Below are positions 29,286 through 52,672 of a stretch of 64,000 bases of DNA, piece after piece. The notes beneath the pieces were generated by a model. That model made no database searches and was not told the origin of the DNA. It saw only the letters and a list, made by a program, of their open reading frames with translations. A program made the translations under genes and the position numbers. Within the stretch, counting starts at the first letter, position 1. Every line of letters starts with the position of its first letter. Source of the stretch: a virus (taxonomy: Duplodnaviria; Caudoviricetes); the IMG/VR virus record IMGVR_UViG_3300009671_000010, positions 1 through 64,000 of that record; one strand, given 5' to 3'.

Positions 29286-32200
29286 ATGGCCTATTATAAT
29301 CCTTTTCAAGATAATAAATCATATTATAATCCATATGAACAGGCAAAAGCAACACCATCAGTAATATCAACTGTTTCTGATGTTGCTAAGAATATGATTG
29401 TATTTGGTGGTTTATTTGCATTAGGGACAGCTGCTACTAAATTTGCATCTGGCAAAATTGGTTCTATTGTTAAAAGTGGAAACTTTGGTAGAGCTACTGA
29501 AATAGCCAAAGGATTAGAGAAACCAACAATTGGAAGTATATTACGCAATTCCAGTGTTGGTAAAAATTATACTGCATTTAAGGAATCAACTGGTTTATAT
29601 AAAGCTGCACAAGAAAGATCTTCTTTACTCTCAAATATTGCAAAAACAGATCCTTCAAAATATAATTTAACCAAGATAACATCTGCTTTTAAAAATCCCA
29701 CTACTTTTGCTGCAACACTTGGTGGTGTATGGAAAAGAAATGTAATAACGGGCTTAGGTGTATCATTTGCCATCGATAAATTATCTGGTTATTATAATGA
29801 GATGAATCCAGAAAAGAAAGCATGGTATGACATTCCAGGTAAAGTTGGTCAGGTAGGTAAATGGTTTGTTAATAACAGTGTATACTCCACTGCATTTGGT
29901 TTACTTGGTCCTGCAGCAAAAGGTGTTGCAAGTATTGGTATGGCTGGAGCCAGGAAAGCATTCGGTGGATCTTTTGGTAAATATATAGAAAAAAGTCTAA
30001 GTCAAGTTTCACCAACACTACAGCATGTTAATGGAGAAAGCAATTTATTTAGAGATAAAGTAATTGCTAATGCCGTTTCAAGACATGAACAAACTTTTGC
30101 TACTAAAGCTATTAAATGGGGTCAAAACTTTTCAACATCTGTAAGTGAAAATTTTAGGAACTTAAATAGTTCAGTTAGAGCAGTTACAACTGGTGGTGCT
30201 GTAGATGCATTTAGAAAACAAGGATCATTTTTAAGTAAAGCTAAATCAGCTTTTGATCCAATTAAAAAAGCATTAGGTCAAATAAGAGAAATAAATGCCA
30301 GGGCAGAAACAATTAGAAGTGAGAGACTAGTTGATACAAGAACCAGTTATAGTGGTATTAGGGGTTTACAATTTTTACAGGCACTAGCTACTGATGCTGC
30401 ACAGAATACTACTATAGAGAAACATTCACTTGATGCACAGATAATGTCTGTTCGTGAATCTATGAAATCTAAACAGACATTTCTTGAGAAACTTCTTCCT
30501 ACTGCTAAACGTGTTAAGAATAAAGATATAACATCTAAAGAATGGTTAAGAGATCAAATAAAAGATCTTAGAAAAAGATATGATAATAAAAGTGTTGGTA
30601 AATTTGTAAGAGAATTTATGAATATGGATGTAGGTGATAATGTTTTTAAAATTAATAATAGAATTGTTAATCTTGATAATTATTCGCCATTTGGAATGAT
30701 AAGAAACATATCTGCTCCTCTATTAAATAAAAAGTTTAATGATCCATTAACAAATTTTAAGTTTACATTAGGTGATATTACAATGTTAAATACTTTTATA
30801 ACACCTAAACCTAAGCTTGATTTTTTTATTGATAAAAACTTAAAACAACTCGCTGAGAAACAAAGTTTAAATATACATGGTATAACTGAACGACCAGTAT
30901 TTTCAACAAATAGAGAACTACAAAAACAAGGTCTGAATAGTATTGATGATATTATGCGTAATTCTCAATCAACAGTAGCATTGTATACAAAAGGTGGCAA
31001 ATGGTCATTTTTTGGTCAAAATGAACCAATGTCTATCAGTACTGGAAAAGATTTAAATTATTCATCCAGATCAAGTAGATTTAGATATAATGAGACCAGG
31101 GATATTACTATTAAAAGTCTTCTCCATAAAGGTGTAAGTAAAAAAGAAATATCATCTCTATTAGGTGGTGTATATTCTGGTAATAATAAATTTGTTAAAT
31201 TTATGGATAAGATGGGATTCCAGTTACCAACAGCTATGGATGGAATGCTTGGTTCGTTGAATGATTTAATTGCTGGTAGAAATAGGGAATATTTAACTGC
31301 AGTTAAAAATATATTTACACCAGGTAGTGTCACTAATATTCAGTCGTCTCTAAATGTATTAGATGATATAAGATCACATACATCTCAAGTAATGTCTGAT
31401 ATACTTGGAAATCCAGAAGTAGTTGATATAATACAAAAACATGGCAGATTTGGTAATTTCAAGGATGATCTAAAGGATATATTATTTAGTGAAAAAAAAT
31501 TAATTGAAAAATTCAGTGAAGATGATTTGATAGCTGATGGCTGGAAGTATAGTTCTGATATTAGGAGAAATTTAGAAACAATAAAAGCATATCCATCTGT
31601 TGCTAGACAACATGAACAGGTCAAAACTCTTGGTGGTTTAGGATCAATGACTTCATTTGATAAACTCAAGGTTGCATATGTTGATCACATAACTGGGAAT
31701 AATTTTTTGAATTACGTTTCTAAAGGAAATGGTTATAAGCATGATTTAATTGATGCTGTTCCAGATTTATTAAATGCAGGTTTGATAACTGAAAAACAGG
31801 CTGGAATTGTTAAACTTCATGCCAAATTATCTTCTTTGCAAAACTATTCTAAGGAACAACTAAAGACTTCATTACAAACTACTGATTTCACAGGAAGTCA
31901 TTTATGGGATGAAATGATTTCTAATGAAAAGAAATTTGGTCTTGATCTTGAAAAAGATCTAATTCAATTTATTAATAATAATAAATTAAGAAGGACCAAT
32001 ATTAATAAATATGAGCAAAGAATTTTACAAAGGTTTAATGATAATAGACCTGTGAATAATAATACTCCTTATTATTCAATGGGTAGGGGTATCGAAGGTA
32101 TTGGACAGTATTTAGGTACTTCTATGGATCGTTTAACAGAAATCATGGGAGAAATAACTCCATTTAAAAAAGATCCTGTTAATCACTTCGGACTATTAGG

Positions 32201-35200
32201 TGGCGCAAAATATTTATCAGGAACAGTATTTAAAATAGCAGCTGCTACTACCGCTTATAGAATTGCAGATACAGCTATTGCGGCAAATCCTTTATTCGAT
32301 AATTCTTCATTTGATGATGGTATTACTGGTATGACGGCTGATCAACTTGCTAAAGCCCGATTATTCAGTGCAAAAGTTGGCGATACAATCGGATTAACTG
32401 GTGCAATGAAATATCTCGAGGGTTTGATGCCTGGATCAACATCAACTATTCCTGGTTTAATAGCTGGTGCTGCTATGGGAACTTTTACTAAGACTAGTCC
32501 ATTCGGAATGATTAAGGCTATGGCTGCAGGAGCTTTAATAAATAGGGTGGCAGATCCATATATTCCAGACTTTAGTAAAGATTATCAACAAGTAAGAAGA
32601 GAATATTCTGGTGAAGAAAAAGTTCCAATGATGAAATCTCCTACTTGGTTACTCGGTTCTACTCCATGGGAAGGTAGTAAAGTAGCAGGATATAGACCTA
32701 ACTGGTATGTTAGAGCCAAATCTAGGTGGGAAGCCTCTGATACGATGTATGGAAGTGAATTTAGAGCACTTATACATAAACCAATATTTCCACTTGGATT
32801 TAATATCGGTGATATAATTGATCCTTACTACATGGAACGCCGCCACTACTTCGATCGTCCCTATCCAAAGTGTCTTTTTGGAAGTGCTAAAGTAGTTACT
32901 GTTAATGGTATTAAGAAAATTAAGGATATCGATATTGGTGATTATGTATATGATATAAACGGTTCTGTTACAAAAGTTATCAATGTACTTAAACGTAAGG
33001 TAAATTATAATGATACAATTTTTTCTATGAGGGTTATTGGTCAGGAAGAAGATTTGATACTTACTTCTGATCATAAAATTCCTATTATAAGGGATAAAAA
33101 ATGTATTTTTAAATCACAACATAATAAGAGTTGCACAGGTAATGATAAAGGAATTTGTAGATATTGTACTAAAAAACGTAAAGATTTTGATATTAGTTGG
33201 GTAGAAGCTAAGGATATAAATATTGGTGATTTTTTGGTGAAAAAACCAATAAATCCTGAATATTTAGGATCCACTATAGATATTTCATTATATGTACAAA
33301 GACCATTTGATATTAAAGAAAATAAAATTTTCATTAAAGATAAACTAGGTAGATATACTGGAGATAGTTTTAATAGATACTGGGATATTGATAACGATTT
33401 AGCTTATTATTTTGGTTTATATTTATCAGAAGGATGGCTTGGTAAACAAAGGGGAAAATATATATCTGTTAATACCGTTCATAATAAAAAAGAATTTGAT
33501 CATATTAATAGAATAATTAATAATATATCAAAAAAATATAATTTAAAGTTTTCATATAAAGATTTTGGAACACATGTAAACTTTTATATATTTGATTATA
33601 TTTTTTCTGATATAATATATGGTTTATTTAATTGTGGTTCTGCTACTAAGAGTGTAAAATTTTTTACTAAAGAATTAGATAGAAAAATATTAGCTGGTTT
33701 ATTTTATGGAGATGGTCATTATGATAAAACACATGTTGTTTTAACCAGTATTAATATGAATTTGATTAATTTCGCAACCATAGTTCTAGAAAATGATTTT
33801 ATTTCTACATGTTTGAAGAAACACTGTGATAATGGTCATCAGTCGTACAGGTTATCATTTTCATATTCATACTTAGATGATTATAGATTGTTATTCGATA
33901 TTAATCATAAAAATGAGAACATATTAACTTCTAATAAGAAGTTACATTTAATTTATTTTAGGAATGGTTATCTTCTTAAAAGAATTATTAAAAAAGAGGA
34001 GATAGAGTATAATGATTTTCTATATGACCTTACTGTAGAATCACCAACACATAGTTTTTCTCTTTATGAATTTATTGTCCATAATTCAGGTAGATTATTT
34101 TCCGAGGTTCCTATTATAGGTGATCTTTTAACTCCTATTGGTAGAATTTTAAAACCCGAGAAAACAATGCATCAGGAGTTCTTACAAGGAGAATGGGCTG
34201 GAACAACTGATGGTGATAATCCTTCTATGGCTTCTTTACCACCTCCAACATATCAACAAAATATGTTTATGATGAACCAGGGAAGTGGTGCTAGAAGTCT
34301 TGGAAGAATTACTGCAAATGGTGGCAATTATACAACTGGGGGAATAACTCCTTGGTCTAAAGTTATTCAAGGTAAAGTTTTCGGAGATGTAACTGAAGCA
34401 ATGGGTTTACCTGGATTTTTAGCAAGAACAACTGCAGAAAAAGTATTTGGTGAACCAGAAGTAATTCCTACACTTGAATCAGCTGGAAGAATGGCTTCTA
34501 TGACAAGATCTTTTTATGATAAGAATCTTGGTGGTATGGGATCACTATGTTTACCAGCTTATGAAAAGATTTTAACACCAAGTGGTTTTATTATGTCTGA
34601 AGATATTAATATAGGTGACATAGTCTATGATAATTTTTATACTGAGCAAAAAGTTGTTAACAAATTTTCGAGATTATGTAGTGAAAATGAAAATTTATAC
34701 ACAATTACTATGGGAGCTGGTAAGACTACGATTTCTATGACTGATGAACATCCTGTTGCCATATATAAAAGAATTTCATGTAATGATAATAAAAAAAGAC
34801 CATGTATACCAAATTACTCAAAAAAATGTTTGACTTGTTCTAAACGTAATAGTCCTATTCATTGGAATTGGACAGCAGCAAAAAATATAAGTGTGGGTGA
34901 TTTTGGTGTTGTTCCTTTACCAAAAATTAAATCATTTAACTATATAGATTTAGCTAAGTATAGTGGTTATGTGTACACTGATAAATATATATATTTTCGT
35001 GCAACTTTAGAATACGCCAAAGGACTTGAGTTACTTGAAAATAATATTTGTAAAACAAGAAAAGATTTAAGAAATTATATATCTGATAACATAGCTAAAG
35101 AAGTTATCAGATGCTATCGATACCATAATTTTTCTAGAGTACGTATCCCTAGATTTATTAGTATTGATGAAGATTTTTGTTATTTTATGGGATGGTGGTT

Positions 35201-37994
35201 AGCTGAAGGTTCATCTGATATTAAAACTGGAAATATATGTTTTACATTAAATATTAATGAAATAAATATTGCACAAAAACTTGGAGAAATTTATAAAAGA
35301 TTTTCAAATTGTTCATATAATATTAAAATTATTAAAGAAAAAAATACTTGTATTTTATCACTTAAAAATAAAGCACTTTCATTATACTTAAAAACCTATG
35401 GTAATGTATATACAAAACAACTAAATGATTTAATTTATTTACCAGATAAATTAGCTATTTCATTATTAGATGGTTTGATAAATGGTGATGGGTGGATCAA
35501 TTATGATTTACAAAGAGGTGGATTTACATCTGTGTCTGAACGACTTGTTAGAGATATATGGTTATTATTATATAGATTAGGTGTACAATCTACTATTATT
35601 TTAAATTATAAAGAGCATCCAAATGGTTATTATCCTCAAGGAACACTAAGACACATAACTACGCGATCTTGTCTTAAATTTAATAAGGATGGTTTTATTA
35701 ATTTATCGAAATGTTTTTCCACTGGAGTTTCGAATGGAGTTATATCAAATGGAAGAGTTTTTACAACAACAGAATATCTGTTTATACAGATAACTGATAT
35801 AAATTTTGTTAATTATTCTGGAAAACCTGTATATGACATAGAAGTTGAAAACTCACATTGTTTTATTGGTAATTATATATTATTACATAATTCTGAACCA
35901 ATAAGAAGACTTTTATCTAAAGAAGAATATAATGAATATCAGGTTAATCCAATACCTAATATGATGCCAAACTTTCTACCTAGTCAATTTCTTACAGGAG
36001 ATCCTTATTCTTCCATTCAAAATGGAGAATTAAGATTACCAGGTAAAGCGTATATGCTAACTAATCCAGATTTAAAACAGAGTATGCCAGGTAGAGCAAG
36101 TAGTTTAGGTGCACCATTGGAAAATATAGTTCAATATTTTACTGGTTTATTACCCCCTAATTTAAAAGAAGAATATGATATATTAGAAACTGGTACATTA
36201 TGGCATAGTAAAATACAGGATACTTTAGCTGCAGAAGGATTGCTTATTAAAGCAGAGGCACTGGTATATGATGTTAAAAATGACATATCAGGACACGTGG
36301 ATGCTATTATTAGAGATGGACAAGGTGGTAAAGGAAGAAGAGCGTTAGAAATAAAAACTATCAGCAATAAAGGATTTGAAAAGCTTGATGCTCCGAAGGA
36401 TCAACATATAGGACAACTTAATTTCTATTTACATCAACTTAGATTTAATAATGGAACTATTTTATATATTAATAGAGATAACCCATCTCAAGTTAAAACA
36501 TTCGAGTTAACTTATAATAAAAACAGATGGGAAAGGGATGTTCAAAAACTACAGCGGGCAAGACAGATAGCTAGAGATATGATGAAAGATGATGTCAGTG
36601 ATACTTTAGGTTATTCCTATTCGTGGCTTGATAGATTAAATATCTTATCTGATGTTGCTCCGATGTCTAATGAATTTAAAGAAGCCAAACAGATTGTTAT
36701 GGCTCAAATTAAGGCTGGTCAATTTACACAAAAAGATATCGATAAATATCATAGAATATTAAAACAACAAAAAGCAAGAGCTAGATCATATGAATTATAT
36801 CCATTAAGATTTAAAGGTAAAGTAATGTCTCCTGACAGTGAGTCTAATATACAATCCATTAATGAGAACATAAAAGCATCTTCAGAATATACTTTACCAG
36901 AAAGATTAATTGGAAGTGCATGGGAAACATTCACAAATTCCAGTAACCCCGCAGTTAATAAATTTTGGGCATTTAAGGATCCACTTGAACATTATAAAGA
37001 AAAGAAATTATATGGTCGTGAGTATACACCGTGGGATGAACCGTATAGAAGCTGGATTGACCCATATATTAGAACTTCTCTTAGTAAAACAAGTACTGTA
37101 GGTGGCGGAGTTTCATGGGGAACTACTGGTTATGTATTTGGAGGTGAGTTTGGAGCTTTTGCTGGAAGTATATTAGGAGCAATGTATGGTACTGTAAATG
37201 GGCTATTTAGATCTGCTTCTAATAGTGCTTATATTCCATCAGAGGTAAAAAATCAAAGAAGAATAAATGAATATTTTGATAAGCTTAAATATGAACGTTC
37301 TAATATGATGTCATCTTTAACTATGGGTAACGTTCGTAATGAATTTTTAGCTCAAAGATCTGCTACTATGTATGCATTTAATAATGAGTCTGATCCATCT
37401 GTTGGTAATTTATTTAGAGCAGCAAGTCCATCAGAAAAACCATATCTACAATCATGGATAAATACAACTGATTCTGGTGAAAGAAATGAAATTTTAAAAC
37501 TTGTTCCAAATGATTTAGGGAGTGCACTTAAGAAGGTATGGGGTAAAAATGATGGTAAAACATTTACTAGAAACAGAATTGATAATATAAGTTCTGATAT
37601 GTCTGGAAATCAACAGAATTTTAATTTTGATGCATCTTTGATGGACCCAAGAATTAACGTGGATGATATAAAATTAAAAGCAATAGAGGATTATGGATAT
37701 AATTGTCATGATTTTGGTTTAGGCTGGAATGAACAAATGTTGAGAATAAAAGAATCAGAACTCAACATACCAAAATCTAATTTAAATGATGATATACCAT
37801 ATACTCCAAATTTATCATCAACGCAAATACGAGGTCAGATATATGAATTACTTCATCAGAGTGGTATTAAATGTAACGTAAATGTCTATATTAATAATAT
37901 GGATGGTCCCAATGTTGTTAATTTAACAGTAAGAAGAGATAGATCACTTGTAGCAATTAATGCATTAAGAAATAGAAGAAAGTATGGAGTTTAA
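29286..37994 (+). CDS. giant tape-measure-position virion protein with two inteins and a PD-(D/E)xK nuclease domain (2049 aa after splicing)
   Basis: Follows chaperones; multiple Gly/Ala-rich hydrophobic segments; two canonical inteins; GTLWH...GHVDAII...LEIKT...QLNFY nuclease motifs. Confidence 0.8.
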   Translation: MAYYNPFQDNKSYYNPYEQAKATPSVISTVSDVAKNMIVFGGLFALGTAATKFASGKIGSIVKSGNFGRATEIAKGLEKPTIGSILRNSSVGKNYTAFKESTGLYKAAQERSSLLSNIAKTDPSKYNLTKITSAFKNPTTFAATLGGVWKRNVITGLGVSFAIDKLSGYYNEMNPEKKAWYDIPGKVGQVGKWFVNNSVYSTAFGLLGPAAKGVASIGMAGARKAFGGSFGKYIEKSLSQVSPTLQHVNGESNLFRDKVIANAVSRHEQTFATKAIKWGQNFSTSVSENFRNLNSSVRAVTTGGAVDAFRKQGSFLSKAKSAFDPIKKALGQIREINARAETIRSERLVDTRTSYSGIRGLQFLQALATDAAQNTTIEKHSLDAQIMSVRESMKSKQTFLEKLLPTAKRVKNKDITSKEWLRDQIKDLRKRYDNKSVGKFVREFMNMDVGDNVFKINNRIVNLDNYSPFGMIRNISAPLLNKKFNDPLTNFKFTLGDITMLNTFITPKPKLDFFIDKNLKQLAEKQSLNIHGITERPVFSTNRELQKQGLNSIDDIMRNSQSTVALYTKGGKWSFFGQNEPMSISTGKDLNYSSRSSRFRYNETRDITIKSLLHKGVSKKEISSLLGGVYSGNNKFVKFMDKMGFQLPTAMDGMLGSLNDLIAGRNREYLTAVKNIFTPGSVTNIQSSLNVLDDIRSHTSQVMSDILGNPEVVDIIQKHGRFGNFKDDLKDILFSEKKLIEKFSEDDLIADGWKYSSDIRRNLETIKAYPSVARQHEQVKTLGGLGSMTSFDKLKVAYVDHITGNNFLNYVSKGNGYKHDLIDAVPDLLNAGLITEKQAGIVKLHAKLSSLQNYSKEQLKTSLQTTDFTGSHLWDEMISNEKKFGLDLEKDLIQFINNNKLRRTNINKYEQRILQRFNDNRPVNNNTPYYSMGRGIEGIGQYLGTSMDRLTEIMGEITPFKKDPVNHFGLLGGAKYLSGTVFKIAAATTAYRIADTAIAANPLFDNSSFDDGITGMTADQLAKARLFSAKVGDTIGLTGAMKYLEGLMPGSTSTIPGLIAGAAMGTFTKTSPFGMIKAMAAGALINRVADPYIPDFSKDYQQVRREYSGEEKVPMMKSPTWLLGSTPWEGSKVAGYRPNWYVRAKSRWEASDTMYGSEFRALIHKPIFPLGFNIGDIIDPYYMERRHYFDRPYPKCLFGSAKVVTVNGIKKIKDIDIGDYVYDINGSVTKVINVLKRKVNYNDTIFSMRVIGQEEDLILTSDHKIPIIRDKKCIFKSQHNKSCTGNDKGICRYCTKKRKDFDISWVEAKDINIGDFLVKKPINPEYLGSTIDISLYVQRPFDIKENKIFIKDKLGRYTGDSFNRYWDIDNDLAYYFGLYLSEGWLGKQRGKYISVNTVHNKKEFDHINRIINNISKKYNLKFSYKDFGTHVNFYIFDYIFSDIIYGLFNCGSATKSVKFFTKELDRKILAGLFYGDGHYDKTHVVLTSINMNLINFATIVLENDFISTCLKKHCDNGHQSYRLSFSYSYLDDYRLLFDINHKNENILTSNKKLHLIYFRNGYLLKRIIKKEEIEYNDFLYDLTVESPTHSFSLYEFIVHNSGRLFSEVPIIGDLLTPIGRILKPEKTMHQEFLQGEWAGTTDGDNPSMASLPPPTYQQNMFMMNQGSGARSLGRITANGGNYTTGGITPWSKVIQGKVFGDVTEAMGLPGFLARTTAEKVFGEPEVIPTLESAGRMASMTRSFYDKNLGGMGSLCLPAYEKILTPSGFIMSEDINIGDIVYDNFYTEQKVVNKFSRLCSENENLYTITMGAGKTTISMTDEHPVAIYKRISCNDNKKRPCIPNYSKKCLTCSKRNSPIHWNWTAAKNISVGDFGVVPLPKIKSFNYIDLAKYSGYVYTDKYIYFRATLEYAKGLELLENNICKTRKDLRNYISDNIAKEVIRCYRYHNFSRVRIPRFISIDEDFCYFMGWWLAEGSSDIKTGNICFTLNINEINIAQKLGEIYKRFSNCSYNIKIIKEKNTCILSLKNKALSLYLKTYGNVYTKQLNDLIYLPDKLAISLLDGLINGDGWINYDLQRGGFTSVSERLVRDIWLLLYRLGVQSTIILNYKEHPNGYYPQGTLRHITTRSCLKFNKDGFINLSKCFSTGVSNGVISNGRVFTTTEYLFIQITDINFVNYSGKPVYDIEVENSHCFIGNYILLHNSEPIRRLLSKEEYNEYQVNPIPNMMPNFLPSQFLTGDPYSSIQNGELRLPGKAYMLTNPDLKQSMPGRASSLGAPLENIVQYFTGLLPPNLKEEYDILETGTLWHSKIQDTLAAEGLLIKAEALVYDVKNDISGHVDAIIRDGQGGKGRRALEIKTISNKGFEKLDAPKDQHIGQLNFYLHQLRFNNGTILYINRDNPSQVKTFELTYNKNRWERDVQKLQRARQIARDMMKDDVSDTLGYSYSWLDRLNILSDVAPMSNEFKEAKQIVMAQIKAGQFTQKDIDKYHRILKQQKARARSYELYPLRFKGKVMSPDSESNIQSINENIKASSEYTLPERLIGSAWETFTNSSNPAVNKFWAFKDPLEHYKEKKLYGREYTPWDEPYRSWIDPYIRTSLSKTSTVGGGVSWGTTGYVFGGEFGAFAGSILGAMYGTVNGLFRSASNSAYIPSEVKNQRRINEYFDKLKYERSNMMSSLTMGNVRNEFLAQRSATMYAFNNESDPSVGNLFRAASPSEKPYLQSWINTTDSGERNEILKLVPNDLGSALKKVWGKNDGKTFTRNRIDNISSDMSGNQQNFNFDASLMDPRINVDDIKLKAIEDYGYNCHDFGLGWNEQMLRIKESELNIPKSNLNDDIPYTPNLSSTQIRGQIYELLHQSGIKCNVNVYINNMDGPNVVNLTVRRDRSLVAINALRNRRKYGV
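32871..34085 (+). mobile_element. intein with LAGLIDADG endonuclease (405 aa)
   Basis: RPYPK|CLFGSAKV, block B LTSDH, YFGLYLSEGW and LAGLFYGDG, ends LYDLTVE...FIVHN, +1 Ser. Confidence 0.93.
34548..35891 (+). mobile_element. intein with LAGLIDADG endonuclease (448 aa)
   Basis: GMGSL|CLPAYEKI, block B MTDEHP, FMGWWLAEGS and LDGLINGDG, ends VYDIEVE...ILLHN, +1 Ser. Confidence 0.93.
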
Positions 37995-40900
37995 ATTGGC
38001 TTTATTCAAAAATGATGATAAAAAAGAAAAAGATAAATTCTGGTTTGTTAAAGTTGCTACTAATGCAGCTATTGCTGGTGGAGCTTTTTATGGATTTAAA
38101 AAGGTAAAAGGACCAGCTGGATCAATCATTAAAAAAATTACAGATACAAATATAAATACAACTGTTGAAAAAGAAGCAGCTAAATACATTAAAACTTCAG
38201 AAGAATTTTCTAATGGTTACAATCCTTTTGATGAAGATGATTTAATTAATCCAAATATTCCAGATCAAATGATGACAATGACTGAATCTCTTATAAGTTC
38301 TAGTGAGGATAGTCTTATATCTGAAATAAATACTCTCAGTAATACTGATAAAGAATTTGGTGAAAAGTTTTCTATTTTCTACTCTAGATTTAATAGTCTT
38401 GAAAAATATGCAATTTCATATGGTCTTGATGGTGAAGATGCACATATAATTTTAGCACTTAGATCTGTTGTTCAAAAAGCACTTGCAAATGGCGTAGTTG
38501 ATGATAGTATTATTTCTAAGGTTAATTCATTACATGAAAAGTATTTAAAGCAAAACGCTTATGGTGTTTTATATCAAAGCCAATTACATCATCTTAAAAA
38601 TAATGCCAGGAAAGTTGTATTTGATAATATGTCATCGAAAGATGTATTAAAAAAATCAATTCTTGGTGATGTTACAACTGACTTAAGTTCTAAAGTAGAA
38701 TCACATCTTCTTGCTGATTTATTTAAAAGGAATAAATCTATCGAGGAATTTGTTCCTGGACAGATTAACAGTGCTCTTACACATGAGCTTGGTTCAACTA
38801 TATCTTCTTTCAAAAAAACAGTTGACTATAATCCACTACTTACAAGGATAGATGACAAACTTAGTTTAATCGAAGCAAAACCAAATTCCAGTATTACTTC
38901 ACATGCTATTCAAATAGCTAGAGATACAAATGGAAAACAGTGGGCTCATATAAATATAACTTTAAATAGCGGGAAGACACACACATTGGAAGTTCCACTT
39001 GCAAAAAATATGATTGTTCCAGGTTCAAATTCAACTGTAAGTTCATATGTTGATATGTTATTCACATTTGGTGGATCTCCAGCAAGTCCATATCAAAATG
39101 TGAAAAGTGCATTAAATTCAAGTGAATATATATTACATACAATATCAAAAAGACTTGATACTAATTCTTCTTTTATGAGTGAGTTTATTAGTGATACTAG
39201 TAATGCTATTCATAGATTAAATAATGAAATTAATGGAATACTTGATAACCTTACAATATATCAAGGTAAACCTGGTCAGTTGATATTACAATTATATAAT
39301 CCAGAATATGATAAACTTTTACATCAAAATGGTGAAGCTGGTCAAAGACAATATGACAAAATGAATCGTGCATTAAATAATATGTCTATGATGAATAGAA
39401 TGGTTCAATATAAAAAAGAAATAAAAAGTGGTAGAATTGGACGTGTATTTATAGTATCATTGGATACAGAAACGATAATGGCATCACAAACACATATACC
39501 TGGTTTAGAACACACTGCTAGAAATCCACAAACTCACTTAGTACAAATTGGTATTGACATAGCAGAGGTTAACAATTCTATGACTCCTAAAGTAGTGGAA
39601 TCTAAAAGATTTTATAGTGATCATGCTACTAATGCTTTGAAAAAAGATAATCTTTTTGATACAAAACAAATGGAATTCATACGTAAGGTTACACCTGGAG
39701 TTGATGCAAGTACAAGTATTGATGAAGTTATAAGCAAATATACTGAACATATTAAATTAAAAACTGATCAAACTGGAACGCGTGCTGCTAATGATACACA
39801 ATTTGCAGACAGTCTTTTAGATTATCTTGATCAATTCTTTGAACACAGTAAAACTGGTAAACTTGGTATTAATGATAAAGTTGTTATAGTTACAAAAAAT
39901 GGTCAACAATATGATTTACCATTGATTAAATTACATGCTACTAAAATGAAATGGAATAAATTTGAACGTAAATATAAAAATATGATTGATACTGGTTCTC
40001 TTGGGGTAATAGAATCAAAATATAATTTCGATGATAGTCCCCTTGGATTGGATTCCGTTATGAAAGGTATTCTTAATAGAACAGGTTTTGGAGATCCGAA
40101 TGTCGATTTTAATAATCCTAAAGTCATAGGAAGTGTATTAGATCATTTTGAAAGAAAAGGTTATCTTACAATTGATAATAATGTTAAAAAACAATTACAG
40201 GGTGCACTAACTCAAACGCATGGTGAAGCAGTAGTGGATGCATTATTTAACATAGTCATATATCAGGATATGTTTCTAAAGGCATCTACTAAAAGAGGGA
40301 TTTGGGATACATCTACACAATTAAAATTAAGAAAAGTAAATGATATGTTTCATGGATCTGCTTCTATTTATGAAAATGTTTTAACTAGAATGGAAAATGA
40401 CTCAGCTTATTTTAATGGGAAATTATTTACTGGATTTTTATCATCTGCTAATAGAGCTACAAAGGGTGCCTTGTATGAAGAATCAGCTGGAGCATTGTAT
40501 GCTTTTGGAGGTGGGTCTAACTTATCTAAACAGATATATCAAAATTTATCTGGACATACATTATCACGAAATATAAACATATCACCAAAAAAAGGTAGAA
40601 ACATTTTTAGAAAAACACTAACTACATTACCCGCTGTTGAATTACATCTAAAAAGAGAAAAAGCAAATAAACAAGCTGGTCTATATAGAGGTAAAGGAGT
40701 AACTCATAACAGTATAACTGTTAAATCAGCTCAAGTTATTTACTCTGCTGCAGAAACTGAAGGTTTGGCAATTTTATCTACTGACATAGCTAAGCAGGTT
40801 AATGTATTACATGATATGAATGTAAATATTAGTTCTATTAATTTTAGCGGAAATAGTACAGATGTAGGACCTCGTATTGATAAGTTTAAAAATATATTAT

Positions 40901-43900
40901 TAGATGCAATGTTAAATGAAAAGAGTAGTAAGCCAGGAAGTATAATTGATATTAATAGATTAGCAAAAAGAATTGCTTCGAGACCCGATATTAATCTTGC
41001 TAGACTACCGCGAGGTACTACTATTGGATCAGGTGATCTTGGACAGATTATATTGAAACATACAGCTAATATTGAGGATTTTGAAATTACACCAATAGAT
41101 GTTAATGGTAGAATTGATTTGGATATACGTGTAAAAATATCAAGAAAGGCTAGGGTTGATGGAAGTGAAGCATGGAAGGCTCGTGATATAAGTGGAAATA
41201 AATCTGTTCTTACATACTCTGATCCAAGTCAAAAAATAAATGGATTATATGGACATGATTTTAGAACTGAAGCAAAATGGATAAAAGATGGTAATGTTTC
41301 AGCTTTTAAAGATTCAGCTGTAAATAAAATTATAGGCACATTACAAGAACAAATTTATTCTGGTGATAGAAAACAATCTATACAAGCTAAATGGCAATTA
41401 AGAAAATTTGCAAGGGAAATTGGCGCTGACATAGTTAAAGATGAATTAATACTTAATCCTTATAAAATGAAAAAAACTAAGTATAAGCATTTGGGTAAAA
41501 AGGAAGAACAGCTTGCACACGCTATTTATGGGGCTCTAGACATCAGTTTAGATACAATCAATAGGTATATGAAGCCTGTTGGCAGTACGTGGTCTAGTGA
41601 GCGTTTAAAGGAGTTTTATGCTAATTTTGGAGGCGGGGATTATAATAAAGGTAGAAGTATTGCTAAAAGATTAGCTGATTCAATGTATGATAAAGCTGTT
41701 TCTAAATTAAAAAATGCAAGTCAGGAAGCATTATATTCAGTTAGTAAAGGTGATGTTTTAAAGGTAGAAGAAGAATATAGAAGAATAGCTGATTCTATAT
41801 ATCAACCAAAAGAAGGCGATACAATTTTTGCTGAATGGGCTAACTCTGATCCTAATGTCAAAAGTTCACATAAATCACTTATATTCTCCTCATTCAGTGA
41901 AATAAGTTTACATTCAGGTAGTATCACTGGAGAAGGTTTCGGATATCATACATTAAAAATGAGTAATAATGTAGTAGATCATATTCTTAGGTCAGATTAT
42001 ATTTCAAAAACTACTAAGGATATGGTTTCCAGTAATAGAGTCTATTATAGAGATGATATAAAGGCGAAAGCTAAAAAATCATTGGATAAATTTAAAAGAG
42101 AAGTATTTGCTGAAGCTTCTATGGCAACACATCTTGATCTTAATGAAATTAATAAATTATTATCTAGACCTGGGACTGAAATGCTTTCTTCTAATAATTT
42201 GGCAAAAAGTATTGATGAAGAGTTGAAAAAAAATATAGCTGGTTATAATATAGAAGCAGATGATATTCTTATTGATGTTAAAGATTCTATGATGACAACG
42301 ATTGAAAAATATAAAGATCATCTAGTTATGATTGATAATGAACTTGATGATCCAGAAAAATTTAGAGAGTATAAAGAAAAACTTGTTTCAAATATTATTT
42401 CACATCATAGAATGGAAACTGCTTTAAAAAAACAAAGTAAATTCGTTACCTATGAAGAAACAAGTGTATGGGCAAAAATGGCTAAAGAGCATAATAATAT
42501 TTTTAGGATTAGTAATAGTGTATCTGGTTTACCAGCAGTATTTGATATTGATATGAATAAAACCTTTAATTCTATTTATGGATCTACAAATTATTCTAAG
42601 CAACAGAAAAATTTATTTGTTAAAATGCTTAATGATATGTTAAAATATCAGCAAAAAAATAAAGTCGATGGACCAATTATATCTATTGATGGAGATAATG
42701 TTAAACTTAGAGAATTATTTATACCAGCACATGATGTAGCAGCAAACATAGCTGACAAAGTTGCTGGACCAATTGCTAGGGAAACTCCAGAAACATATAG
42801 TTCTAAAAGATTCTTACAATCAGTTGTATCTTATGCTAATGGTTTAACTATGCAGGGATGGACAGATGTTAATGCTAAAAGTTCCTATGAAACTATGATT
42901 AAGTTCTGGACTATGCATATTCTTGATACAACTATTGGTAATAAATCTGTATATGGTCAATGGCAGTCATCTAATTTAAAAGTTCAACAGTTTAAATCAA
43001 AAGGTGCTGAAAATTTATATATACAGGCACTTGAAATAAAAAATGCAGGAGGTATGAAAGCTATAGCCAAAGATAAAAATGTATCAGCTGATTATATACG
43101 TAGAGGTAATGAGATTCTTGAACAAATTTTAAATTCAAAATTTAATACTACATTCATATCAGAGACTGCATTTAAAAAAATGAAAGTTGACATAGGTGCG
43201 GGATTATCTACATCGTCAGAATCATATCTCAAGTCATTATCTACTAAGCAGGATAATCTATATAAAAGAATAGTTTCTGGTGAACAGAAAATGATTGGTT
43301 TTTCTACTCGTTATCCAAATGAACCACAGGGACAACACGCAATGATGGATACCATGATTCAGGTTATACCTGATGAATATAAAAAATATTTCCTAATGGA
43401 TGACTGGAGTGCATATACATATGATATATTTACTCAAATGATTAAGATGGACCATGATGGTGATGTTAATAACATCGGTTTAACCAATGTTAATACTATT
43501 GAAAAATTTAGGACTCACCGTAAAGAAATAAAGAATAAATCAAAATTATTATTTCAAAAAATTACTAATGTTATAGAAAAGCAAAAATATGATTATCATA
43601 CATGGATGAGACCTATAGGACTTGATGAAAATGGTGTTATGGATATACTTACATTTGATAAAGTAACCTATAGTCCCAGGGTTATAAAAAAAGAACTAAC
43701 TCAAGCATCTACTGATGAATTAGCTGAATTATTTGCTGGAGACAATATGTCAGCTTTTATTGCTGGATATGGTACTCAACTTCCTGAATTCATGACTGGT
43801 AGAGGATTAAATGCTATTAGGGTTCAAGCTGCATCGGCTGCTGCCACTAAAGATACTATGGGTATTGCAACCAATAGTGTAATGCGTGCAAACATAGCTA

Positions 43901-44919
43901 TGAAAGCTGGACTAGTTAAAGATCAGCATATTATTAATGATTTTTTTGGTGACATGAAAACTGGTTTAGGACGATTTTTACAAGATGTTACTGGTATTAC
44001 AAAAAATCCTACATTAGAAAAAATTATATCATTATCTAGGCAACTTGAAGTTTTACATGGAAAAACATCTGATCTTGAAGCAGTTGAACAATTTAAAGAT
44101 AGTTATATTAAAACATTTGAAAATGAGGCTAAATCTCTTGGTGATGAATATGATTTATTTCTTAATAAAAAAGGTTCTTTTTATGAGAATAAGAAAAATC
44201 AAATAGATACATATATCATGGTTAATAAAATTATTAATACGGCTAATAGAAATAGTGTTACGTTTAGAGATGCATATAAACAAGTTGTTCAATCTGAAAT
44301 GAATTCACCATCCAGAGGTTTGACTAGTATTTTTAATCAACCAGAAGATATTGGGCGTGATGATATATTTGCTGGAGTTCTAGAAAATGCAAGGCAAAAT
44401 CATTTTTATGAAACAAGTTCTATATTTGATGAGTTTTCTGAAAACTTTAAAAATAAAATAAAACTTAGTCATCCTATTATTAATAATAGTAAAAAATTTG
44501 CTAAATATGGTGCTATTGGTGCATCGGTGTTCTTAGCTGCTAATTTCTTTAGGTCAAATCAATTAAGTTCATCAGCCAATCCTTTAGATATGTTTGTTGA
44601 CTTAGATAATAATATAAATTCTGACAATAATATTTTTTCTTCTGATTTACAACTTGATAGAGGATCTTCACTTGAAATGGTAGATGCGTCATTCTCTAAA
44701 AAAGCTTTTGTTAGAATGAATAAAATACAACAAGGTAAAATGAATCAATATAAGTCAAAACAAATTAATAGTATTTTAGGCAGTATGTCTGAAAATTACT
44801 CAAATACAGGCTTTAATGTTTCAAATAGAGATATAGTAACCAATGCGAACTATACTAGTCATATTGGTAAATTCGGTAATAATAATATAGTAAGAAAGAG
44901 AAAATATGGTGGTTATTAA
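37984..44919 (+). CDS. putative single-chain two-barrel virion RNA polymerase fused to DEDDh 3'-5' exonuclease
   Basis: Exonuclease motifs SLDTET, KNGQQYDLPLI, IDT, HGEAVVD (aa ~490-755); polymerase motifs TEGLAILS (~926), KARDISGNKSV (K1065/K1073), RYP (R1776), MDHDGD (D1823-D1827). Confidence 0.75.
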   Translation: MEFKLALFKNDDKKEKDKFWFVKVATNAAIAGGAFYGFKKVKGPAGSIIKKITDTNINTTVEKEAAKYIKTSEEFSNGYNPFDEDDLINPNIPDQMMTMTESLISSSEDSLISEINTLSNTDKEFGEKFSIFYSRFNSLEKYAISYGLDGEDAHIILALRSVVQKALANGVVDDSIISKVNSLHEKYLKQNAYGVLYQSQLHHLKNNARKVVFDNMSSKDVLKKSILGDVTTDLSSKVESHLLADLFKRNKSIEEFVPGQINSALTHELGSTISSFKKTVDYNPLLTRIDDKLSLIEAKPNSSITSHAIQIARDTNGKQWAHINITLNSGKTHTLEVPLAKNMIVPGSNSTVSSYVDMLFTFGGSPASPYQNVKSALNSSEYILHTISKRLDTNSSFMSEFISDTSNAIHRLNNEINGILDNLTIYQGKPGQLILQLYNPEYDKLLHQNGEAGQRQYDKMNRALNNMSMMNRMVQYKKEIKSGRIGRVFIVSLDTETIMASQTHIPGLEHTARNPQTHLVQIGIDIAEVNNSMTPKVVESKRFYSDHATNALKKDNLFDTKQMEFIRKVTPGVDASTSIDEVISKYTEHIKLKTDQTGTRAANDTQFADSLLDYLDQFFEHSKTGKLGINDKVVIVTKNGQQYDLPLIKLHATKMKWNKFERKYKNMIDTGSLGVIESKYNFDDSPLGLDSVMKGILNRTGFGDPNVDFNNPKVIGSVLDHFERKGYLTIDNNVKKQLQGALTQTHGEAVVDALFNIVIYQDMFLKASTKRGIWDTSTQLKLRKVNDMFHGSASIYENVLTRMENDSAYFNGKLFTGFLSSANRATKGALYEESAGALYAFGGGSNLSKQIYQNLSGHTLSRNINISPKKGRNIFRKTLTTLPAVELHLKREKANKQAGLYRGKGVTHNSITVKSAQVIYSAAETEGLAILSTDIAKQVNVLHDMNVNISSINFSGNSTDVGPRIDKFKNILLDAMLNEKSSKPGSIIDINRLAKRIASRPDINLARLPRGTTIGSGDLGQIILKHTANIEDFEITPIDVNGRIDLDIRVKISRKARVDGSEAWKARDISGNKSVLTYSDPSQKINGLYGHDFRTEAKWIKDGNVSAFKDSAVNKIIGTLQEQIYSGDRKQSIQAKWQLRKFAREIGADIVKDELILNPYKMKKTKYKHLGKKEEQLAHAIYGALDISLDTINRYMKPVGSTWSSERLKEFYANFGGGDYNKGRSIAKRLADSMYDKAVSKLKNASQEALYSVSKGDVLKVEEEYRRIADSIYQPKEGDTIFAEWANSDPNVKSSHKSLIFSSFSEISLHSGSITGEGFGYHTLKMSNNVVDHILRSDYISKTTKDMVSSNRVYYRDDIKAKAKKSLDKFKREVFAEASMATHLDLNEINKLLSRPGTEMLSSNNLAKSIDEELKKNIAGYNIEADDILIDVKDSMMTTIEKYKDHLVMIDNELDDPEKFREYKEKLVSNIISHHRMETALKKQSKFVTYEETSVWAKMAKEHNNIFRISNSVSGLPAVFDIDMNKTFNSIYGSTNYSKQQKNLFVKMLNDMLKYQQKNKVDGPIISIDGDNVKLRELFIPAHDVAANIADKVAGPIARETPETYSSKRFLQSVVSYANGLTMQGWTDVNAKSSYETMIKFWTMHILDTTIGNKSVYGQWQSSNLKVQQFKSKGAENLYIQALEIKNAGGMKAIAKDKNVSADYIRRGNEILEQILNSKFNTTFISETAFKKMKVDIGAGLSTSSESYLKSLSTKQDNLYKRIVSGEQKMIGFSTRYPNEPQGQHAMMDTMIQVIPDEYKKYFLMDDWSAYTYDIFTQMIKMDHDGDVNNIGLTNVNTIEKFRTHRKEIKNKSKLLFQKITNVIEKQKYDYHTWMRPIGLDENGVMDILTFDKVTYSPRVIKKELTQASTDELAELFAGDNMSAFIAGYGTQLPEFMTGRGLNAIRVQAASAAATKDTMGIATNSVMRANIAMKAGLVKDQHIINDFFGDMKTGLGRFLQDVTGITKNPTLEKIISLSRQLEVLHGKTSDLEAVEQFKDSYIKTFENEAKSLGDEYDLFLNKKGSFYENKKNQIDTYIMVNKIINTANRNSVTFRDAYKQVVQSEMNSPSRGLTSIFNQPEDIGRDDIFAGVLENARQNHFYETSSIFDEFSENFKNKIKLSHPIINNSKKFAKYGAIGASVFLAANFFRSNQLSSSANPLDMFVDLDNNINSDNNIFSSDLQLDRGSSLEMVDASFSKKAFVRMNKIQQGKMNQYKSKQINSILGSMSENYSNTGFNVSNRDIVTNANYTSHIGKFGNNNIVRKRKYGGY

Positions 44920-45088
44920 TCTAACTATTGATCTACAGGATGGAATACAACCTGATAATATTATTTCATCTATTCAAGCAATCTTATCTCAAATTACAAA
45001 TAATCAAACTATGGTTAATGTTAATGAAGTAAATGATCCCATATCATTAAGTCCTATATCTTTTAATAAAATTGGAGATTCTGAATGA
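44906..45088 (+). CDS. small hypothetical protein
   Basis: 60 aa, fills the gap exactly, overlaps the upstream stop and is ATGA-coupled to the next gene. Confidence 0.6.
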   Translation: MVVINLTIDLQDGIQPDNIISSIQAILSQITNNQTMVNVNEVNDPISLSPISFNKIGDSE

Positions 45089-48000
45089 CTAGTAATCTGC
45101 TGTCTATCTGTACATATCTTAAATCTGTTTTTGTTTTAGAACATGATAAATATTATTCTTTTGATTATTCATCAAATATGTCTAAAACTGTATCAATTAA
45201 AAATATAATTAATGATGAATTAAATAAAATAGATGCCAAAATTAATTTTAATAAACAGATTAGATCAGTTGATTTTCAACTTGGAGACATAGTATATAAA
45301 GATTCTATTAATGAATTATATATTATACTTGGTGTTGATGGTGATAAAGTATTTACTTTTCCAGACAGTAAAAATGCAAAATGGATTAATACATCTACTA
45401 AGTCATATACAGTTATAAGACCTGATTACAGTTCTGTTAAAATGGATAATATAAATACTAGAATTAATGATAATATTACTAAAGATATAACTAATAAACT
45501 TAAATCTAATGAAGGTACGTTTATAACTAATTATAATCAGTTACCTGATTCATCATTACAAATTGGAGACATAGTTGTTGCTGTCGATCCAATACAAATA
45601 TCTTTTAGTACTCAGAATGGATATCAATATTATCCTACAGTTAGAACTAATGGTAATCCTATTCTTCCATCCCCGCAGCAAATTAAGAATATATCAGTAG
45701 TTCTTATATTTCCAAATGAAGATTCTATTAATAATCAGCTATTGAATATATATGCAATGTACAGAAGAACCCCTTTTGTTAATATTCGTAATAAACATAT
45801 ATGTGATTTTTTTAAAGATATTAAATCTGAAAAATCAGATTATATACCTGTAGCATTAGAAAGTATAAATATTGAATCTGTATCTGGATTTCCAAATACA
45901 TTACAGGCAACTCTTACTTTACTTCCATTTGATCCTAGGGTTATATCAAACGGATTATTAGCATTAAGATCATTATCTGATGTACAAAATCAAACTATTG
46001 ATAATGATTATCTTTTAAAAGAATATAATAAAGCTATTGAAAGAATGGATAGTAGTTTATATAATTCAAATACTTTCAAAAATGAAGATATTATAACTAA
46101 ACCTGTCAGATATTCTGATGATTTTAGAGAAAGTCTTCCATTTAGAGCATTCTATCAATCAATGATATCTGAAAAAAAATATGTAGAAGATGAATATGGA
46201 AATGTTGTTCCAATTAAAGATATATCTGGTATCGAAATAGCAGATGGATATGATATAAGTGCATATAGACCAACTAATAGTTATAATATGTTACATAGAT
46301 ATACTTCAATTGATAATATTAAACCTATTTCTTTCAAATATTCATATCTTAAAGATGATTATAGATCACTTATAAAAGATATATCCAAAAATAGAGTTAT
46401 AAATCAAGAAGAACTTGTTAATAAATTAAAGGATACTCTTATTCAATTAAATTCTAAAGATACAATGATAAGTTCTATATTTACAAGTTGTTTGTCTTTT
46501 AAGGATTATGTTGCTGAAACTGAATTTACATGGAATAAAGTTGATAATGCACTTAGAAATCTTTTTATTGAAAGTGGAATAGATGTACCTAATCAGAGAG
46601 TAAATTACAATCTTTCTGAAAAAGATATTGGAAATAATGTTACTTCTTTATTTAAGTTTCTTATAGAAAATATAATGAGGAGTGGTTCGAATGCAGTTGG
46701 ATATAATGCACTAAAAAATATACGATCTATAGTTGATGGAAGAAACATAGTAGTAGATGATTATATTGGTTTACTTAATCAATTATATGTTCAAACAGAT
46801 AATGAATTTAACTCTGGAACCAAACTTGTAGGTCTACCAACTTTAATAGATAATATATGGAAATGGTTAAATATAAATGATAATAATAAAATTGCATTTG
46901 CACAATTTTTAAAGAATTGGACTGAAGCACTTGCTAATGATCTTAATACTGGAATAATGACTACTGATATATCATCTCCATCATCTGATATTCAAGGAAA
47001 AAAAATATATAGATTACCTATAGAAAATGATACTATATCTATTGATTCTAAAAATAATATTATTCAGAACTGGAACATAGTGTTTAGCAATAAATTTGTA
47101 CCTATCAATATACAATCTTTTAAATATCCATTTTATCAACACCTTGGTAGTGAAAATGCATCAATTAATCTAAACATAGTTTCTGTTAATAATTCTGATT
47201 TTATTTCAAAAATTTCACAGTTATCTGATAGATTATTAGATTCTTCAAAAGTTTTATCAATGTGTTGTCCTGAATTATTAACATGGCTTGACTCTAGAAT
47301 AACAGTCGAATCTGATACAAATAATATATTTAATGTATTTGGATTTAATAAAGTATCTTATAATTCTTCTAATATTACAAATATACAGGGTCAGCCTGGA
47401 TGTTGGAACATTGTATTGAATTTAACACAATCAAATATAAGTGTAGCTGATTATACAAACATACAACAAGAAAATGATAATTATGCTTATATAGAAGAAC
47501 TTGCTAAATTTATATGTAGGTTACAGATTGAAAATGATAATATAATTGTAGTTGATTATTATAATGAAGATAATACTCTTATAACTGATTTAGAAGATAT
47601 GATAAAATGTTCTTTTATGTTTTCTAAGTATATGGTTATGCTTAATGATGAAACTGGATATTTATCCACTGTAAAAGATAATAGTGTTACTTTGGGTAAA
47701 AAAAAGCTTTTAGCTGATCTTAAAAAGAATGGTGTATATAGTATCATTAATGGTTCTTTAAGTAGTGTACTTAATAACTTTTTTTCTAAAAATGATATAT
47801 TCTATAAAGAATTAAAGACAGTTTTATTTAATGTTGATAAATTACATAAAAAAGAATATCTATTATTTAATAATTTATTAGCAGACAAAAAAAAAATATT
47901 TGAAAGTAATAATGTTAAATTTACCGATGTTTTGTTTGCAGTAATTGGTCCAAATAGATTATTTACTATTTCCAGTATTGTTAATAAAAGTGTTGGTACT

Positions 48001-51898: not shown

Positions 51899-52672
51899 AT
51901 GAATAATATGATTTTAGAACAAAATTCACTACAGTTTTATTTAGGAGAATTAGCTGAGACTAATTACTATAATGAGCAACAACACTTGGTTAGAGTTAAA
52001 TTTAAAAATAGCTATTATGATATGCATTTATTTGGGTATACAGTAGAAGTTCCAGATCCTAAGTATCATCTTGTTATGTTTTTAGCTCCAGAAAGAAGTA
52101 TTTCTACTTCATCCATAGATGGCGATGCTTTAAATAATCCTCCAGGAATAGTTAATAATAAGGTTGTTGATGTACAATTTTGTGTTGCTTTTCTGATTAA
52201 TAGAACACAAAAACTGTCTACCACAAATGCTCAAACTGGTACAGCTAGTTTTGCTATTTCAAATACTAACTTTTATGATTCTAATAATGTCCGTGTGGCT
52301 ATTACTGCTCCAACTTCTAATGACTATACTAGGGTTAATGATGATTCTGGAGTAGATTCTAATAGAAATCAAAGTATAGGATTATTTTTAAATGATGACA
52401 GTGTATTAATTAAATCACGAGGTTCATCGATTACACTTGGTGATGATGGTATACATATTGGTGGTAATGTTTCTTGGGAACAAACTTCACATGGTAAAGG
52501 CGTAATGGCTAGGAACCAATTTGCAGAAATAATTCCATCAAGCATTCCTACTGCTATTATATCTACACCCAATATACCAAATGTAACTCAATTTCTTATG
52601 TTTGCTGAAGCTGGTCAAAGAGTTATGTCTGTAATAAATAAAGCTGGAAAAGTACTGGAGATATTAAAATAA
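51899..52672 (+). CDS. putative baseplate spike (gpV/gp45-like)
   Basis: Position after hub; short beta-strand run GLFLNDDSVLIKSRGSSITLGDDGIHIGGNV. Confidence 0.5.
   Translation: MNNMILEQNSLQFYLGELAETNYYNEQQHLVRVKFKNSYYDMHLFGYTVEVPDPKYHLVMFLAPERSISTSSIDGDALNNPPGIVNNKVVDVQFCVAFLINRTQKLSTTNAQTGTASFAISNTNFYDSNNVRVAITAPTSNDYTRVNDDSGVDSNRNQSIGLFLNDDSVLIKSRGSSITLGDDGIHIGGNVSWEQTSHGKGVMARNQFAEIIPSSIPTAIISTPNIPNVTQFLMFAEAGQRVMSVINKAGKVLEILK

Follow-up and report, generated by a model that had tools for sequence, protein, structure and literature searches.

A predicted DEDDh exonuclease domain in a giant tail-module protein of an uncultured jumbo phage, upstream of a putative RNA polymerase signature

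Why should a protein from the tail module of a phage carry the motifs of a 3´-5´ exonuclease, and what would such an enzyme do there? The question is raised by a stretch of 64,000 nucleotides from the IMG/VR record IMGVR_UViG_3300009671_000010 (positions 1 to 64,000, referred to as the window). An open reading frame (ORF) of 2311 amino acids (aa) at 37984-44919, situated where the tail module of a myovirus has its tape-measure gene, encodes the protein that we call P0001. It lies on the plus strand, as do all other features of the window described here. A first-pass annotation had read in P0001 a DEDDh (DnaQ-like) exonuclease fused to a putative RNA polymerase (RNAP). As the best explanation overall we propose, with moderate confidence, that an active DEDDh exonuclease is fixed in a tail-delivered giant protein beside a putative polymerase.

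The exonuclease motifs named by the first-pass annotation are all found at the residues it had listed (D494, E496, D644, H746 and D752). ExoI is VSLDTET (aa 491-497, 39454-39474) with D494 and E496, and LVQIG is read from the translation of P0001 at aa 519-523. ExoII is KNGQQYDLPLI (aa 638-648, 39895-39927) with D644. MIDTG (aa 667-671, 39982-39996) contains I668-D669 and corresponds to the "DT/DS" structural motif of DnaQ-like exonucleases. ExoIII is HGEAVVD (aa 746-752, 40219-40239) with H746 and D752. The spacing of its His and Asp had been noted as one residue longer than usual, and it is indeed H-x5-D in P0001 versus x4 in E. coli epsilon. Taken by itself, the motif set is only modestly unlikely to occur by chance, because a loose ordered version of it is matched in 21 of 5000 shuffles of P0001, while the other 27 plus-strand open frames of at least 200 aa in the window lack it (1 positive of 28).

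When P0001 is set against E. coli epsilon (K-12 record), the four motif blocks appear strikingly alike. ExoI reads IVLDTETTG in epsilon and IVSLDTETIM in P0001. The ExoII block, where epsilon has HNAAFDIGFM, reads VIHNAAFDIGFM and VTKNGQQYDLPLI, respectively, the beta5 block KVTDSLAV and NMIDTGSLGV, and the ExoIII block, HGALLDA in epsilon, HGALLDAQILAEVY and HGEAVVDALFNIVIY. The distance from the first to the third acidic residue differs: D494 and D644 are 150 residues apart in P0001, versus 91 for the equivalent distance in epsilon.

Further evidence comes from homologues. A phmmer search with aa 440-839 against 1.84 billion representative proteins returned four other proteins only, all of them giant (1679-2378 aa, E from 4e-19 to 5e-4) and all with the domain at the same relative position. 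Word-based searches brought P0002, 63% identical to P0001, and nothing beyond P0002 and P0006; pattern scans of IMG/VR and JGI metagenomes gave three further loci. The family has nine members, P0001 included, and the domain is kept at one place within the giant protein (~2340 aa) in all nine. The phages that carry them are uncultured jumbo phages with contractile tails. The survey of homologues suggested by the first-pass annotation has therefore found the arrangement to persist throughout the family. No free-standing version of the domain was found among the homologues from phmmer, word and pattern searches, and tblastn of whole P0001 against 50,697 GenBank phages gave zero matches.

In a 7-sequence alignment of 331 positions (20-26% identity to P0001), 14 positions are invariant, and these include D494, E496, H746 and D752 together with K638-N639-G640 and I668-D669. 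The hypergeometric chance that four of five catalytic residues named beforehand fall among 14 invariant positions is ~1e-5. Across all nine members the D494-x-E496 pair, H746 and D752 are invariant and the H-x5-D spacing is identical; the position of D644 is occupied by Asp in eight and by Glu in one (P0003, locus L001).

Two members deserve a separate remark. The one with Glu in ExoII lies on a JGI contig of 437,216 bp, which belongs either to a phage of very large size or to a cell that carries the element. The shortest, P0006 (725-5764 of locus L004), ends at 1679 aa, upstream of the D-x-D-x-D region discussed below; its contig is 6 kb long with 2.2x coverage, and its shortness is probably an assembly error or frameshift rather than a natural form.

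A structure of aa 470-800 was predicted with AlphaFold2 from a 5-sequence alignment (mean predicted local distance difference test score, pLDDT, 80.4; predicted template modelling score, pTM, 0.82). The elements follow in the order beta1-beta2-beta3, helices, beta4, helix, beta5, helices, which is an RNase H-like alpha/beta fold with a five-stranded sheet. D494 and E496 sit on beta1 (strand 19-31 of the model). D644 lies where the end of beta4 (strand 163-168) passes into the next helix (171-182), and MIDTG is at the end of beta5. H746 immediately precedes the last core helix (280-299), with D752 in its first turn. This placement is the same as in epsilon and other DEDDh enzymes; the His of ExoIII is what separates DEDDh from DEDDy exonucleases. 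The model bounds the domain at aa ~486-790 (39439-40353), so the interval first proposed, 39448-40260, was right in location and slightly too small in extent.

A Foldseek search with this model, a check also proposed in the first-pass annotation, returned from the PDB RNase T, Pol III epsilon, PARN, Pop2, ExoI, Orn and exonuclease domains of B-family polymerases (E from 3e-4, probability 0.91-1.00). The structural neighbours also include Orn/REXO2, the defence-associated Cap18 exonuclease and the EXO-like domain of Exuperantia. In BFVD the best matches were PolB exonuclease domains, accompanied by phage proteins named DEDDh or exonuclease. PolB exonucleases are of the DEDDy type, and neither PolB motifs nor Pfam matches to PolB were found in P0001. 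By language-model features, the nearest named clusters were viral RNase_T phage exonucleases (0.90-0.91). Among the homologues, the Pfam family RNase_H_2 (PF13482) covers the ExoII-beta5 region of L006 with 21.9 bits against a cutoff of 22.0 (E 1.9e-4) and the same region of L003 with 16 bits (E 0.012).

Several results weigh against this assignment and have to be put on the other side of the balance. Pfam and PHROG scans of whole P0001 and of the domain gave nothing relevant to DEDD families; PDB searches with the single sequence (phmmer) and with the profile (hmmsearch) gave no relevant match for the domain; hhalign of the 7-sequence profile with E. coli DnaQ gave no match, and RNase_T (PF00929) found none in the viral record. 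The assignment of fold depends on a single AlphaFold2 model made from five sequences. Finally, H-x5-D stands in place of the canonical H-x4-D, and ExoII has Glu in one member.

We treat the H-x5-D spacing as a peculiarity of a subfamily and not as exclusion from the DEDDh superfamily. Because P0001 does not reach the Pfam gathering threshold of either RNase_T (PF00929) or RNase_H_2 (PF13482), the domain is filed in the superfamily by fold and motifs, not in a Pfam family. Judged by the model, aa ~486-790 very probably adopt the DEDDh fold of the DnaQ/RNase T/TREX type. The first-pass annotation had named a missing RNase H-like fold and variable catalytic residues as signs that would speak against its assignment; the fold is predicted and the residues are conserved in their expected places, which together support the assignment. 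The closest DEDDh exonucleases are E. coli epsilon (DnaQ), RNase T, TREX1/2, ExoI, Orn and the N-terminal domain of S. aureus DinG. From these the P0001 domain differs in being undetectable by sequence profiles and in being embedded in a 2311-aa tail-module protein, whereas theirs are free-standing or attached to a replicase. It is a divergent subfamily, with the unusual ExoIII spacing and with ~130 extra residues, inserted as helices between beta3 and beta4 and behind beta5. The pattern of conserved residues suggests that the domain is probably a catalytically active nuclease.

What, then, is the exonuclease attached to? A second signature lies ~1070 residues downstream of it. STRYP (43303-43317), with R1776-x-P1778, is a candidate element of the double-psi barrel of beta´ type, and DHDGD (43450-43464), with D1823, D1825 and D1827, is a candidate Mg-binding loop of a two-barrel RNAP. 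R-x-P followed ~45 residues later by D-x-D-x-D occurs in every member for which the C-terminal part is available. The residues R1776, P1778, D1823, D1825 and D1827 are invariant in all six aligned members, and D-x-D-x-D is present also in P0002; the metal loop takes the forms DHDGD, DFDGD and DYDAD. In beta´, R-x-P likewise precedes the NADFDGD loop. A comparison with residues 330-520 of E. coli beta´ by hhalign puts the two loops in register, but the match is weak, with an E-value of 0.0089 for a single comparison and a probability of just 4.5%.

Against a polymerase stand a number of failures. The AlphaFold2 model of aa 900-2020 (1121 aa, 6-sequence alignment) has a pLDDT of 46 and a pTM of 0.29. 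Searches of the PDB with Foldseek and wide searches with VIA-align returned noise and helical hairpins only; fold searches of this kind are meaningless because the model they started from reached just pLDDT 46. Pfam and PHROG scans of all family members and PDB searches with the family profiles found no relevant polymerase match. The domains PF00623 and PF00562 had no match, even at E 10, in the source record or in G001, a complete relative of 230,193 bp, and hhalign comparisons with two regions of E. coli RNAP, the barrel of beta and the bridge helix of beta´, were not significant. The K-x7-K motif of the beta barrel, which the first-pass annotation had also pointed out, is not conserved: K1073 alone is invariant. 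The claim of fusion to a putative RNAP is thus borne out by the invariant R-x-P...D-x-D-x-D signature and the weak match in register, and left without help by the poor model and the empty profile searches.

The negative searches carry limited weight, because two-barrel RNAP families share little sequence beyond the D-x-D-x-D region; gp96 of Thermus phage P23-45 was itself first recognised by the D-x-D-x-D signature in a virion protein (PMC10770324). On balance, a two-barrel RNAP appears to us a rather likely identity of the fusion partner, and we call it putative throughout. As a separate observation, a Pfam domain of beta or beta´ RNAP is not detectable anywhere in G001, even at E 10. If this phage has a polymerase of its own, its tail-module protein is the only candidate seen.

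The strongest competing explanation accepts the exonuclease and denies the polymerase: the remainder of P0001 would not be an RNAP, and D-x-D-x-D would belong to some other module, be it metal-dependent or structural, in a protein that serves as tape measure or in ejection. This explanation has a substantial, if smaller, chance of being correct. It profits from the fact that structural and profile tests of the polymerase region all failed, from the low hhalign probability and from K-x7-K not being conserved apart from one invariant Lys. What it has to accommodate is that R-x-P and three Asp remain invariant at ~20% identity in the same order as in beta´, that the hhalign match falls in register with NADFDGD, and that beyond the motif the known two-barrel RNAPs of phages escape sequence searches too (PMC10770324).

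Two described systems come close to the arrangement that we prefer, an exonuclease beside a putative two-barrel RNAP. In gp96 of P23-45, a two-barrel RNAP of the virion is joined to the tape-measure protein of the tail (PMC10770324). Like P0001, gp96 is giant, encoded at the tape-measure position, provided with a signature of DxDGD type and invisible to sequence searches in its polymerase part beyond the motif. Unlike P0001, it belongs to a siphovirus and carries its RNAP at the N-terminus, and the polymerase identity of P0001 is putative. Sequence similarity between the two was not found in PDB and profile searches, and the paper on gp96 mentions no exonuclease or nuclease (PMC10770324). The second system is gp66 of the crAss-like phage phi14:2, a virion RNAP with a single-chain two-barrel core within ~1600 residues of unknown fold (bioRxiv 10.1101/2020.03.07.982082). 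It resembles P0001 in size (~2200 aa) and in having further giant virion proteins as neighbours, among them one with a hydrolytic domain, but its loop is DFDID, with no Gly at the fourth position. A PDB search found no sequence similarity between gp66 and P0001, and no exonuclease is mentioned in the paper that describes gp66 (bioRxiv 10.1101/2020.03.07.982082).

A more remote parallel is offered by DNA polymerases of families A, B and C, in which, as in P0001, a DEDD exonuclease lies N-terminal to the polymerase active site in one chain. These are, in contrast, DNA polymerases with unrelated catalytic domains of palm type. To our knowledge, injected virion RNAPs are known from few phages only, namely N4, crAss-like phages and P23-45. 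The exonuclease fold is ordinary and virion RNAPs of two-barrel type, including those fused to a tape-measure protein, are already known (P23-45 gp96, crAss gp66); a description of an exonuclease-RNAP fusion in a tail protein was not found in full-text searches of the literature.

Another question is where P0001 would act. Its gene sits between the genes for sheath and tail-chaperone-like proteins and those of the baseplate, which is the usual site of a tape-measure gene. Because of this position, we consider it most likely that P0001 is carried in the virion or tail and enters the cell by ejection. Presence in the virion is argued by analogy, and the sole ground for it is that the positional counterparts in Bacillus phage 0305phi8-36 are annotated as virion proteins by mass spectrometry. 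P0001 has a hydrophobic segment rich in Gly and Ala near its N-terminus (aa 19-38, 38038-38097), and segments like it are present at the N-termini of P0003-P0006. A second one, YGAIGASVFLAANFF, also rich in Gly and Ala, is read near the C-terminus (aa 2175-2189, 44506-44550). The C-terminal 160 residues (aa ~2150-2300), which take in this second segment, are the best-conserved stretch of the protein, with 40-43% identity to distant members in windows of 50 aa. Hydrophobic stretches at the two ends are conserved in the family. The terminal hydrophobic segments and the conserved C-terminus would fit a protein of the tail lumen or one that is ejected.

The comparison with 0305phi8-36 has its limits. 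There, gp145, gp146 and gp147 form a block of three giant genes between tail chaperonins and baseplate, as in the window. In the record of that phage, gp145 and gp146 carry the label of virion proteins on the evidence of mass spectrometry, gp146 is named "hypothetical tape measure protein", and gp147 is a hub with cell-wall hydrolase domains; the third giant protein of the window bears a hydrolase as well. Neither gp145 nor gp146 contains a DxD[GAIV]D motif or a Pfam domain, hhalign matched neither of them to the profiles of exonuclease or polymerase, and a search of the 0305phi8-36 genome with one of the family profiles found nothing. The YonO-like RNAP of this phage (Iyer et al.) is a different protein from gp145-147, as the accessions differ (ABS83659.1 and ABS83703-ABS83705, respectively).

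A possible course of events, starting with P0001 in the virion or tail, would be as follows. After ejection into the host cell, the exonuclease would act on 3´ ends next to the polymerase. Its catalysis would be of the two-metal type, with D494, E496, D644 and D752 binding Mg2+ and H746 serving as the general base. The 3´ strand at the entering end of the phage DNA might be trimmed, possibly in cooperation with the RecB/Cas4-like nuclease that the preceding giant protein carries. Trimming would then lay bare a single-stranded template or promoter, on which the first transcription could start. We favour such processing of DNA ends as the main role, tentatively and at less than even chances, because a RecB-type nuclease would be delivered from the adjacent gene and because crAss gp66 strongly transcribes single-stranded DNA, as was seen in vitro with the recombinant protein (bioRxiv 10.1101/2020.03.07.982082).

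Alternatively, the exonuclease might serve the RNA product of the polymerase, removing misincorporated or backtracked 3´ nucleotides or trimming transcripts. There are parallels, like proofreading exonucleases fused to DNA polymerases and the coronavirus nsp14 ExoN, also a DEDDh enzyme, which works with an RNA polymerase. We nevertheless find this role unlikely. Two-barrel RNAPs normally deal with backtracked RNA by cleaving it in the polymerase active site itself, and fidelity would be of no obvious use to short early transcripts. Moreover, a linker of ~110 residues and ~1030 further residues lie between the exonuclease and the D-x-D-x-D loop, and the polymerase identity of the partner is itself putative.

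The most far-reaching version of the proposal is the following. A tail-delivered two-barrel polymerase would carry a DEDDh exonuclease acting in cis, which edits the nascent 3´ end or prepares the template of the polymerase. Injected together with the RecB/Cas4-like nuclease, it would form a self-contained machine for starting the genome, and it would be the first architecture of proofreading or end-processing type in the two-barrel superfamily. In this full form we regard the idea as improbable.

Somewhat less likely than a role in RNA editing is that the exonuclease is an injected enzyme of takeover or counter-defence, independent of the polymerase and held in the same polypeptide for delivery only. 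Its targets might be 3´ ends of host DNA or RNA, primers, or short or cyclic oligonucleotides that signal defence. That the adjacent giant protein would deliver a further nuclease, of Cas4/RecB-like type, suits such a function, as does the presence among the structural neighbours of Orn/REXO2, which act on short oligonucleotides, and of the defence-associated Cap18. Finally, a DEDD fold that has lost catalysis and now binds nucleic acid or plays a structural part, such as holding the DNA end, would agree with the non-canonical H-x5-D of all members, the single Glu in ExoII and insertions that double the usual size of the domain, but it is very unlikely, as the catalytic positions are kept (D644 as Glu in one) in members only 20-28% identical, amid 14 invariant positions, and inactive DEDD domains, such as the EXO-like domain of Exuperantia, typically lose these residues.

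There are three aspects in which the arrangement of P0001 may be of wider importance. Firstly, a conserved and apparently active DEDDh domain beside a polymerase signature suggests that these jumbo myoviruses deliver nucleic-acid-processing chemistry along with their DNA. Secondly, the finding is directly relevant to the way in which an injected polymerase comes by a first template, be it found or created. Thirdly, D494/E496 and H746, the latter with its odd H-x5-D, provide mutable targets for biochemistry in a family that current annotation pipelines do not recognise. The value of all this is tempered by the fact that the exonuclease fold itself is ordinary.

The surroundings of the gene are those of a large contractile-tailed phage. 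The window comes from an IMG/VR contig of 111,472 bp with an estimated completeness of 48% and holds the structural module, with every gene on the plus strand. PHROG scans named the head and tail genes: large terminase (4817-7114), portal (999 aa, 9647-12646), major head protein (15181-16500), tail sheath (21670-24411), gp25-like baseplate wedge (52672-53181) and gpJ-like wedge (53190-54446). GenBank holds relatives of the sheath only in Moorella phage MTATph1 and in Bacillus jumbo phages, 0305phi8-36 among them, and these are ~28% identical to it. The source phage is an uncultured jumbo myovirus and a distant relative of 0305phi8-36. Crass-like phages are not contractile-tailed, and a crAss-like identity was ruled out by the contractile tail module (sheath, gp25-like and gpJ-like genes) and by the DxDGD loop, which is not DFDID. 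The gene order around P0001 is kept in loci L001-L003 of the relatives and in 0305phi8-36. The relative G001, to which loci L005, L008 and L013 belong, has a P0001-family protein and is a complete genome with terminal repeats.

The three giant ORFs (29286-51897) are flanked by two small ORFs (100 and 183 aa) and by the baseplate genes. In the first of the three (29286-37994, 2902 aa), Pfam recognised intein splicing and LAGLIDADG domains (E 1e-15 and 1.4e-14, aa ~1774-2202) and PHROG the Cas4/RecB-like PD-(D/E)xK nuclease close to the C-terminus (E 1.7e-16, aa 2298-2423); lysyl oxidase was matched weakly at aa 1268-1327. The stop of this ORF overlaps the start of the P0001 gene. The third (45085-51897, 2270 aa) contains an endolysin-like region (phrog_20474, E 7e-31, aa 1897-2104) and corresponds in position to gp147 of 0305phi8-36, the hub protein with NlpC/P60 and M23 domains. 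Between the second and third lies an ORF of 60 aa (44906-45088) that overlaps the stop of the former and the start of the latter. ORFs of 60-63 aa occur at the matching site in the loci of three relatives, and none is called in L003.

Two further observations concern other genes of the module. The portal ORF also has a PHROG match named "thymidylate synthase" (aa 327-415, E 4e-9), which probably reflects an insertion, for instance an intein, and not a real thymidylate synthase domain. In the interval between the sheath and the giant genes, an ORF of 711 aa (26181-28316) shows matches to transglycosylase-like and lytic tail proteins at aa ~486-680.

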